DNA from: a virus
Lineage: Duplodnaviria; Heunggongvirae; Uroviricota; Caudoviricetes
Direction: 5' to 3' (one strand)
Length of the DNA stretch: 4,943 bases
Virus record (IMG/VR): IMGVR_UViG_2531839449_000028
Shown: positions 2,590 through 4,943 of the stretch, piece by piece
Numbering within the stretch: the first letter of the stretch is position 1
Layout of the letters: each line of letters starts with the position of its first letter
Notes under the pieces: generated by a model
Told to the model about the DNA's origin: nothing
Seen by the model: the letters and a program-made list of their open reading frames with translations, nothing else
The model's database searches: none
Program-made: the position numbers and the translations under genes

Positions 2590-4943
2590 ATGGGGGCTGA
2601 TAAAACGAACAACATAATGACACTATCCTCTGGTGTCTCACAGCCTTTGCTTGCTGATGTTCAATATTTCGAACTCTATAGTAGTTCGGCTCTTAACAGA
2701 AAACTAAAAAATATTGTTTTGCCTGGCTTTTACTGTGGATTTGAACCAGTTCCCGGCACAGGGTTGAGCGTCCGTATAACTTCTGAAAATTCAGAAGGTA
2801 AAGGGGCTGCTTCAGTAGATGTAAATAATGTTCAGATATCCGTTCAGCAAATAGAAGATGTGACTGTCTCGGTAAAGGCAGGGGCTACCAACATTATTGT
2901 GCTGGAAGCCAATTTTGAACATGGTGTAAAAACGACACAGGTAGATAGCACATCTTCTGTCAGTGCTGCAAGAATTTACGCGCGTACGGACAATACTATT
3001 GGGCAGAATCAAATTGAATTATGTCGAGTTATCGTGCCTAGCGGCGCAACGGCTGTGACTAAAGAAATGATTGTGCTTAAATACCGGGTTAACCGTGCTG
3101 TTGGTGTCGAATTCTCTAATGAAATAAGCAGTACAGAAGAAAGAAAAGCGGCTACACCTCTGGCTGTCAAAACTCTCCATGATTTGGTTGATACAAAAGC
3201 TCCGCTCGATAGTCCGCATCTGTCAGGTACGCCGACTTCGCCAACACCTGAACCCGGTACAAAAAACACACAGATCGCAAATGCGGCCTTTGTCTATGCA
3301 GCTATAAATGCGCTTATCAATGGTGCTCCGGGAACGATGGACACGCTGAAAGAAATTGCAGCAGCCATCAATAACGACCCAAAATTCAGCGAAACTATCA
3401 ATAACGCACTGGCTCTTAAAGCTCCTTTGGCAAGCCCTGTGTTCACAGGTACGCCGACAGCGCCTACGGCCTCACAAGGCACAAATAGCACGCAGATTGC
3501 AAATACAGCCTTTGTTAAGGAAGCCATAACGGCACTTATCAACGGTGCACCTGGCACACTGGATACGCTTAAAGAAATAGCTGCTGCGATCAATAACGAC
3601 CCGAATTTCAGCACAACTATCAATAATGCCCTGGCTCTCAAAGCGCCTTTGGCAAGCCCTGCATTAACGGGTGTCCCTACTGCGCCGACCGCCGCACAGG
3701 GCACAAATAATACGCAGATTGCTACGACCGCTTATGTAAGAGCTGCCATTTCCGCATTGGTTGGTTCATCACCAGAAGCTCTTGATACCCTGAATGAGCT
3801 TGCCGCAGCACTTGGCAATGACCCGAACTTTGCGACAACAATGACAAATGCGCTGGCAGGCAAACAGCCTCTGGATGCAACTTTAACCGCGCTTGCTGCC
3901 CTTGCGACTGGTGCAAACAAACTGCCTTATTTCACCGGTAAGGATACGGTAGCGCAGACTGATTTAACGTCAGTCGGTCGCGATATTCTGGCTAAAACAA
4001 GCACACTGGCCGTTATCCAATACCTTGGTTTAAGAGAACTCGGTACCAGCGGTGAAAAGATCCCCCTGTTGAGTACGGCTAACACATGGAGTGCGCGCCA
4101 GACTTTCAACGGCGGGATCACCGGGGCGCTGACAGGGAACGCCGACACCGCGACGAAATTAAAAACAGCCAGAAACATTAATGGCGTCAGATTCGATGGT
4201 TCGGCTGACATTAATATCAATACTCTGGTATCACGCGGTCGAGTAACTGCTCTGGCGTCGAATGCGCAGGGGACATCCGGGATTCAGCTGTATGAGGCAT
4301 ACAACAATGGCTACCCTTCCCTCTATGGCAATGTGCTTCACCTTAAAGGTGCCACCGCTGCTGGCGAAGGTGAGTTATTCATTGGCTGGAGTGGCACGAG
4401 CGGTGACCATGCGCCCGTACATATCCGTTCGCGGCGGGATACTGATTCTGCCAACTGGTCTGAATGGGCGCAGGTCTATACGTCAAAAGATTCCGTTCCC
4501 GGCGTTAATGCCAAAGGGAATCAGGACACCTCTGGCAATGCGGCTACAGCGACTAAATTGCAGACAGCACGTACTATTAACGGTGTCTCGTTTGATGGTT
4601 CTAAAAATATTGAGTTAACGGTGGAAGATTTAAATCTTGAGCAAACCGTAGAATTAGCCGCAGGAGCATTACAGAAAAACCAGAACGGCGCAGATATTCC
4701 GGGAAAAGATACCTTCACCAAAAATATTGGTGCCTGTCGCGCATATAGCGCATGGGTGGATATTGGTGGCGATAGTCAGGTCTGGACAACTGCGCAATTT
4801 ATTTCGTGGCTGGAGAGTCAGGGGGCATTTAACCATCCTTACTGGATGTGCAAAGGCTCATGGGCTTATGCAAATAATAAGGTCATTACAGATACAGGTT
4901 GCGGAAATATTTGTCTTGCAGGTGCTGTGGTGGAAGTTATTGG
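2590..4943 (+). CDS. Phage tail fibre protein (P2 gpH / lambda Stf / Mu S family), 3'-partial; it runs off the window end
   Basis: RBS GAGGG at 2579-2583, ATG at 2590; frame 1 is open for about 784 codons to the window end, which I checked by translating through. The shaft region (...KAPLASPALTGVPTAPTAAQGTNNTQIATTAYVRAAISALVGSSPEALDTLNELAAALGNDPNFATTMTNALAGKQPLDATLTALAALATGANKLPYFTG...VGRDILAKTS...) closely resembles my recollection of P2 gpH. It also carries the phage fibre repeats (...NADTATKLKTARNINGVRFDGSADINI...) and a ...LQKNQNGADIPGKD... segment recalled from lambdoid Stf proteins. Confidence 0.9.
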   Translation, partial: MGADKTNNIMTLSSGVSQPLLADVQYFELYSSSALNRKLKNIVLPGFYCGFEPVPGTGLSVRITSENSEGKGAASVDVNNVQISVQQIEDVTVSVKAGATNIIVLEANFEHGVKTTQVDSTSSVSAARIYARTDNTIGQNQIELCRVIVPSGATAVTKEMIVLKYRVNRAVGVEFSNEISSTEERKAATPLAVKTLHDLVDTKAPLDSPHLSGTPTSPTPEPGTKNTQIANAAFVYAAINALINGAPGTMDTLKEIAAAINNDPKFSETINNALALKAPLASPVFTGTPTAPTASQGTNSTQIANTAFVKEAITALINGAPGTLDTLKEIAAAINNDPNFSTTINNALALKAPLASPALTGVPTAPTAAQGTNNTQIATTAYVRAAISALVGSSPEALDTLNELAAALGNDPNFATTMTNALAGKQPLDATLTALAALATGANKLPYFTGKDTVAQTDLTSVGRDILAKTSTLAVIQYLGLRELGTSGEKIPLLSTANTWSARQTFNGGITGALTGNADTATKLKTARNINGVRFDGSADININTLVSRGRVTALASNAQGTSGIQLYEAYNNGYPSLYGNVLHLKGATAAGEGELFIGWSGTSGDHAPVHIRSRRDTDSANWSEWAQVYTSKDSVPGVNAKGNQDTSGNAATATKLQTARTINGVSFDGSKNIELTVEDLNLEQTVELAAGALQKNQNGADIPGKDTFTKNIGACRAYSAWVDIGGDSQVWTTAQFISWLESQGAFNHPYWMCKGSWAYANNKVITDTGCGNICLAGAVVEVI
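3211..3876 (+). repeat. Three tandem, in-frame 222-bp repeats (copies at 3211-3432, 3433-3654 and 3655-3876), each encoding a 74-aa fibre shaft module
   Basis: Each copy begins AGYCCG (Ser-Pro) and encodes SP.(L/F).G.PT.PT...GT.NTQIA..A(F/Y)V..AI.AL(I/V)...P....DTL.E(I/L)AAA(I/L).NDP.F..T(I/M).NALA.K.PL(A/D). Copies 1 and 2 are nearly identical in protein over INGAPGT.DTLKEIAAAINNDP.FS.TINNALALKAPLA, while copy 3 is more divergent. Confidence 0.85.
4138..4220 (+). repeat. Phage tail-fibre repeat motif, copy A (NADTATKLKTARNINGVRFDGSADININ)
   Basis: In-frame motif N-A-x-T-A-T-K-L-x-T-A-R-x-I-N-G-V-x-F-D-G-S, the short repeat typical of lambda Stf / T4-type fibre proteins as I recall it. It is paired with copy B about 400 bp downstream. 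Confidence 0.6.
4537..4620 (+). repeat. Phage tail-fibre repeat motif, copy B (NAATATKLQTARTINGVSFDGSKNIELT)
   Basis: Second in-frame copy of the same motif; 21 of 28 residues are identical to copy A. Confidence 0.6.

Follow-up and report, generated by a model that had tools for sequence, protein, structure and literature searches.

Three tandem 74-residue modules in the tail-fibre gene of a P1/D6-type phage-plasmid are probably old duplicates under protein constraint

The stretch of viral DNA considered here (4,943 nucleotides (nt), IMG/VR record IMGVR_UViG_2531839449_000028; 'the window' below) carries a homologue of the P1 and D6 tail-fibre gene S, and within this gene lies an array of three 222-nt units, U1 to U3, whose peptides are conserved and whose DNA is heavily diverged. 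We consider it very probable that the array represents three self-contained 74-residue modules in the constant (Sc) part of a P1/D6-type fibre, and that these are old duplicates held by protein constraint and not products of deliberate recoding. Judged by its sequence matches, the element is a D6-like/P1-like phage-plasmid of Escherichia coli: several E. coli plasmids match at 98-99.9% across window positions 895-4943, and phage D6 (MF356679) matches positions 900-4650 at 94.8% of nucleotides.

The periodicity is exact. Tandem Repeats Finder (TRF) reports a period of 222 with 2.1 copies, 79% matches and a score of 592 at 3259-3722, and a direct-repeat search pairs 3196-3417 with 3418-3639 at 74%. 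Each of the three units starts with KAPL in frame 0 of the open reading frame (ORF) that begins at 2590; the period is gap-free and in frame, 41 of the 74 columns are the same in all three, and the unit profile matches each of them at E = 1e-43 to 1e-46 with no other match within the protein. The three tandem 74-residue modules that an earlier note on this DNA had described at 3211-3876 are real, its interval being the 666-nt array offset by 15 nt. One might still suspect that there is no true repeat and that the similarity arises by chance or from the low complexity of a fibrous protein rich in Ala, Thr and Asn, considering that the region is compositionally biased and attracts spurious Pfam matches (Acyl-CoA_ox_N and MtrD, both below their curated cut-offs and discarded as compositional noise). 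This suspicion, to which we give virtually no credence, is already refuted by the gap-free in-frame period with its invariant columns, by the per-unit E-values of the hidden Markov model, by the TRF score and by the fact that P1 carries an annotation of these very units. In the scanned copy of Pfam no family scored above threshold on the units, and the Phage_fiber_2 motif PF03406 ('phage tail fibre repeat') does not cover them: its sole match (residues 174-205) lies directly upstream of the array, overlapping the first three codons of U1. The matched stretch is related to the 'a' elements of P1, its AVK..DLA.TK motif recurring in a0 and a1.

Pairwise comparison of the units separates a conserved protein from silent sites close to saturation. 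U1 and U2 are 74.3% identical in nucleotides and 77% in amino acids, with 11, 8 and 38 differences at the three codon positions, proportions of synonymous and nonsynonymous differences (pS and pN) of 0.59 and 0.145, and corresponding distances dS = 1.15 and dN = 0.16. U2 and U3 share 66% of nucleotides and 68% of residues (codon-position differences 14/14/47; pS 0.70, pN 0.206, dS 2.08, dN 0.24), and U1 and U3 only 56% and 58% (23/17/58; pS 0.87, pN 0.290, dN 0.37), with synonymous sites so saturated that neither dS nor dN/dS is computable for this pair. The dN/dS ratio, which the earlier note had proposed as a check, is 0.14 for U1/U2 and 0.115 for U2/U3, so that its reading of an ancient duplication under purifying selection agrees with the data (dN/dS 0.12-0.14, with dS near or beyond saturation). 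The nearly identical core peptide that it had reported for U1 and U2 is likewise present, with 36 of 39 residues identical, over 39 codons and not about 45; the codon differences within it comprise 16 synonymous and three replacement changes. The share of differing third positions in this core had been put at one third and is in fact 17/39 (44%), while the codon pairs listed as examples (aat/aac, gct/gca, ccg/cct, gga/ggc, gac/gat, ctg/ctt and att/ata) are all found.

By sequence and position, the units are the already known 'b' repeated elements of P1-type gene S. The feature tables of the P1 GenBank records M81956 and NC_005856, from which we took the P1 repeat annotation, mark in Sc, shortly before cixR, a 'repeated element b1' and a 'b2', both 222 nt long, the order being the shorter a0 and a1 elements, b1, b2 and then cixR. 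The earlier note overlooked this existing annotation. The window agrees with P1 gene S in unit size (222 nt, 74 residues), in the shared frame, in a register within 3 nt and in the location upstream of cixR in Sc; it differs in that its array has one unit more, U1, at the upstream end and that its N-terminus is of the D6 type, whereas P1 has two b units after its a0/a1 elements and a different N-terminal domain (42% amino acid identity). By coordinate subtraction, 154 nt separate the end of U3 from the start of the cix site compared to 151 nt from the end of b2 in P1, the 3-nt gap being the register offset. Because the cix 20-mer thus stands at an equivalent distance after the last unit, the array lies within Sc, shortly ahead of the segment whose inversion changes host range. 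The cix crossover would, on the P1 model, fall at about 4025/4026, and since the site is inside the fibre gene, the sequence from ~4026 on belongs to the invertible, host-range-switching C segment.

Relatives show that this array changes in copy number by whole units. Among the 120 closest protein clusters, in all of which the array begins at residue 203, there are three units in 87, two in 30 and four in three, and D6 and P1 have two units each; in the two-unit plasmids of PLSDB the array region is exactly 222 nt shorter. Comparison of copy number among homologous fibres, also put forward in the earlier note, therefore gives a range of 2 to 4 units. Scoring the 57 sites at which U1 and U2 differ, we found that the first units of relatives pass once and cleanly from the U1 to the U2 state, at unit nt 28-42 in an FDAARGOS_1059 plasmid, at nt 81-100 in LD93-1, CP183151 and AP027678, and at nt 147-162 in D6; at the protein level, chimeric U1/U2 first units occur in 30 of 30 two-unit clusters, and U2/U3 and U3/U2 chimeras are both present among relatives. 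The four-unit arrays of CP183151 and AP027678 have middle units identical at 219/222 and 221/222 nt, with exact runs of 212 and 221 nt, and in four-unit arrays U1 and its neighbour share perfect tracts of 86-122 nt. To judge from these sequences, units continue to be gained, lost and homogenised through homologous recombination, and the arrays tolerate DNA repeats that are almost perfect. The switch points fall in intervals holding the longest shared exact runs; we do not take this coincidence as evidence of mechanism, because longer invariant intervals are likelier to hold a switch by chance. In AP027678 both middle units are U3/U2 chimeras, the signature expected of unequal-crossover expansion.

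The question then is whether the silent divergence calls for anything beyond drift. The earlier note had offered, as an alternative to old duplication, a pressure to lower DNA identity and so suppress RecA-mediated deletion, a suggestion that the codons themselves do not support. Considering only codons at which two units encode the same residue, and taking as expectation independent draws from the codon usage of neighbouring phage genes, that is, full saturation, the adjacent pairs differ at 28 of 57 codons for U1/U2 (expected 37.1 +/- 3.5, z = -2.6) and 27 of 50 for U2/U3 (expected 33.2 +/- 3.2, z = -1.95), and the non-adjacent pair U1/U3 at 34 of 43 (expected 28.6 +/- 3.0, z = +1.8), an excess that is non-significant once the three tests are allowed for. 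Exact runs between units reach at most 14 nt (U1/U2), 16 nt (U2/U3) and 5 nt (U1/U3), and for each pair runs as short or shorter arise in at least 19% of codon-column shuffles, so that none is unusually short. With adjacent pairs below saturation and runs within the shuffle range, there is no need for selection on silent sites. Adaptive recoding would hold that selection drove synonymous divergence until no stretch sufficed for deletion mediated by RecA or a phage recombinase, stabilising the three-unit array. It can point to the shortness of these runs, below the ~20-30 nt of perfect identity that RecA is commonly said to need for efficient recombination in E. coli, to the marginal U1/U3 excess over saturation, and to the diverged three-unit form being the commonest (87/120 clusters). 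We nevertheless regard it as improbable: the adjacent pairs, the relevant ones for deletion, differ silently at fewer codons than they would if codons were chosen at random, and their longest runs are not below those of the shuffles; inter-unit recombinants exist with at least three U1/U2 switch points as well as U2/U3 chimeras, and all 30 two-unit clusters have chimeric first units. Moreover, perfect repeats of 212-221 nt in four-unit arrays and identical U1/U2 tracts of 86-122 nt persist in sequenced plasmids, and a nine-unit array elsewhere has adjacent units with exact runs of 57-58 nt. Copy-number variants, chimeras and near-identical units together contradict a designed barrier against recombination. 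Passive survivorship, which needs no silent-site selection because diverged arrays simply last longer, would let arrays that have drifted below the identity for efficient recombination outlast fresh, DNA-identical ones, leaving the three-unit form as the survivor of stability; we think this rather unlikely, but if it were true, copy number across the population would be a balance of recombinational expansion and contraction against stabilisation by silent drift.

A different issue is where U1 came from. The gene 16 and gene R homologues and the N-terminus of S are only ~42% identical in amino acids to P1, with dN of about 0.6 and saturated dS, whereas DNA from U2 onward is 85-91% identical to P1, and the P1-type DNA similarity starts at window position 3432, which is nt 15 of U2. 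In PLSDB 416 plasmids match, mostly P1-type ones that do so only from 3432, and others break off in or near the array. Because the similarity changes so sharply in or near the array, the conserved in-phase modules fall where fibre halves of different ancestry meet, a pattern that fits the long-standing view of tail fibres as mosaics. One might then suppose that U1 is the D6-lineage counterpart of P1 b1, joined to a P1-type b1-b2 block by out-of-register recombination, so that U1 and U2 would be orthologues made tandem. The position of the junction at 3432 and the distant upstream genes speak for such an origin, as do a dS of 1.03 between U1 and b1 compared to 0.51 between U2 and b1, a 16-nt exact run at the 5' ends of U2 and U3 that could host the crossover, and the further mosaic junctions in or near the array of other plasmids. 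However, no 'pure' two-unit U1-U3 parent occurs among the 120 clusters, the two-unit forms all ending in U2-like sequence; the dN between U1 and b1 (0.135) is far below the flanking value of ~0.6, though the module could simply be more constrained; and the data fit equally an old duplication in place followed by replacement of the distal part. We treat the inter-phage origin as a real possibility, perhaps a somewhat doubtful one.

Returning to old duplicates under protein constraint, we picture the history of the array as follows. The array follows the N-terminal domain, which is baseplate-proximal, and precedes the cix site that opens the invertible, receptor-binding variable (Sv) part. The copies are probably old paralogues, or units joined by recombination between the fibre genes of diverged phages; in either case the protein is held by purifying selection because each module must fold into the fibre, and the silent sites have drifted almost to saturation. 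Protein constraint and silent drift would by themselves yield a conserved peptide on DNA that looks heavily recoded. Unequal crossover and gene conversion between units probably add, remove and blend units with the frame kept, and since the units are exactly 222 nt, in phase and able to recombine without a break of frame, natural relatives with two, three or four units would result. The fibre is presumably a trimer in which each module would fold as one trimeric shaft segment of fixed length. It is plausible, by analogy with other fibrous phage proteins, that the number of units determines how long the proximal shaft, and with it the fibre, is, and the variation between 2 and 4 units fits a length-setting shaft array. 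The conserved module DNA might also be where crossovers occur when phages exchange fibre halves.

Several points weigh against this picture. The length-setting role rests on analogy because no usable structure covers a whole unit: an AlphaFold2 monomer model of residues 171-480 is unusable, with a mean predicted local distance difference test score of 34 and a predicted template modelling score of 0.22, and sequence matches in the PDB extend to half-modules only, namely the gp4 collar fibre 9d93 for the LDTLNELAAALG.DPNF half and chains 9k09 and 9cuy for the APL.SP..TG.P..PT half. A further match, to 6v8i, lies in the unmodelled part of FibU (PMC7048315). The non-adjacent pair U1/U3 leans to the side of more silent differences than expected, as given above. 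The direction of events is also ambiguous, for two-unit forms could be deletions from three, or else the three-unit forms could stem from an out-of-register exchange in which a D6-type gene recombined with a P1-type one. Taken as a whole, the interpretation of the earlier note is partly supported.

Similar modules are widespread. The long tail fibre of D6 (orf35) and the D6-like phage-plasmids of E. coli, Salmonella and Shigella resemble the window in the order bplA, gene 16, R, S, in the N-terminus and in an array start at residue 203, and most sequenced plasmids of the D6 type have three units as well; D6 itself departs from the window in having two, the first being the U1/U2 chimera that switches at about nt 147-162. 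The earlier note's remark that its third copy matches P2 gpH most closely is borne out by P2 H, of which residues 251-324 match profile positions 1-74 (E = 1.2e-40) with 85% amino acid identity to U3, 68% to U2 and 62% to U1. P2 H is unlike the window in having a single copy, a different baseplate-attachment domain and no cix-bounded inversion at this position. The lambda stf gene and P2-like gpH genes (of phage Wphi and others) also match the module. With tblastn, the module is found in 398 records of phages as diverse as enterobacterial phages, mycobacteriophages and cyanophages. A profile of the three units matched 47,089 proteins, each representing a 50%-identity cluster; 13,891 of these reach E <= 1e-10, and many of the proteins have multiple matched stretches, the commonest spacing between successive full units being the tandem 74 residues. 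Arrays in this module family reach about 10 units. In the fibre gene of a P2-like myophage (JGI metagenome 3300027796), 9.5 tandem units have pairwise nucleotide identities of 61-96%, some adjacent ones sharing exact runs of 57-58 nt; this range suggests that old and recent duplications are both represented. The unit itself is made up of two sub-motifs, one at positions about 1-38 and the other at about 30-70; either can also be found by itself, and the two match different solved fibre chains.

As the repeats are the b elements of P1 and have stood in GenBank for decades, the significance of our finding lies mainly in their correct annotation. The module is one of the building blocks used most often in phage tail fibres, and the array offers a clear natural example of how a fibre shaft may grow, shrink and swap partners via homologous recombination within conserved in-phase modules, which would be relevant to the engineering of P1-type fibres for delivery or altered host range.

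Table 1. Features of the window (positions are those of the whole 4,943-nt stretch).
Feature	Position	Strand	Remarks
IS3-family element, 3' part	1-894		OrfB 156-854 with rve and HTH_21 domains
bplA-like baseplate gene remnant	895-1190		last ~100 codons only in window
P1 gene 16 homologue, baseplate protein, 281 aa	1201..2046	+	phrog_2015 E = 3.4e-131; D6 orf37 annotated 'similar to P1 gene 16'
P1 gene R homologue, baseplate wedge or fibre-associated, 148 aa	2141..2587	+	phrog_2032 E = 1.5e-74; D6 orf36 annotated 'similar to P1 gene R'
Tail-fibre gene, P1/D6 gene S homologue	2590..4943, past window end	+	784 codons in window; ORF open to 3' end
Phage_fiber_2 motif PF03406	3109..3204 (aa 174-205, ...AATPLAVKTLHDLVDTKAPL)	+	E = 2.7e-7, 30.5 bits vs cut-off 22
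U1, 74 aa, D6-lineage-specific unit	3196..3417	+	94-98% nt to first unit of D6-type relatives; 77% nt to P1 b1
U2, 74 aa, counterpart of P1 'repeated element b1'	3418..3639	+	86% nt, 91% aa to b1
U3, 74 aa, counterpart of P1 'repeated element b2' and P2 gpH module	3640..3861	+	91% nt, 99% aa to b2
cix recombination site	4016..4035	.	20-mer TCCAATACCTTGGTTTAAGA identical to P1 cixR; position agrees with P1 and D6 cixR annotations

The genes around the array (Table 1) follow the operon order bplA, gene 16, R, S, on which the PHROG matches and the D6 annotation agree. The gene S homologue matches tail-fibre families of PHROG at E = 0 and the D6 'long tail fiber protein, similar to P1 gene S' at 94.8% of nucleotides. 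In two relatives, genes of equal length at the gene 16 and gene R positions match PF26903 (Phage_P1_Gp16) and PF26881 (Phage_P1_tail_fiber_R), respectively; the role of P1 gene R is described in PMC9024508. Similarity to D6-type plasmids begins exactly at position 895, where the IS3-family element stops. This element is inserted in the bplA-like baseplate gene and truncates the bplA homologue. The phage-plasmid, in the copy seen here, probably cannot assemble its tail properly. In H26, the closest full-length relative, the IS3-family element sits at another position.

Scanning 1900-2700 for promoters and terminators gave nothing relevant, and the -22 box of P1 (AAGTTACTT) was not seen in the intergenic region between the gene 16 and gene R homologues of the window. 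A perfect GC-rich hairpin, TTCTTCCCCC-GCATTT-GGGGGAAGAA, lies between these two genes at 2049-2074; at the counterpart position P1 has a different GC-rich hairpin, just upstream of the late promoter LPs. Beyond the cix site, the variable part (4026-4943) is itself a mosaic, with DNA matches of different relatives ending at 4169, 4202, 4637 and 4650. Segment 4663-4943 shares ~98% identity with the fibre genes of two phages, SfMu and P88, and the solved chain 8ju3 ('Tail fiber protein S/S'') matches residues 660-784. This part also holds a second, shorter repeat, GNADTATKLKTARNINGVRFDGSADI (4135-4218) and GNAATATKLQTARTINGVSFDGSKNI (4534-4617), the two copies lying 133 codons apart.

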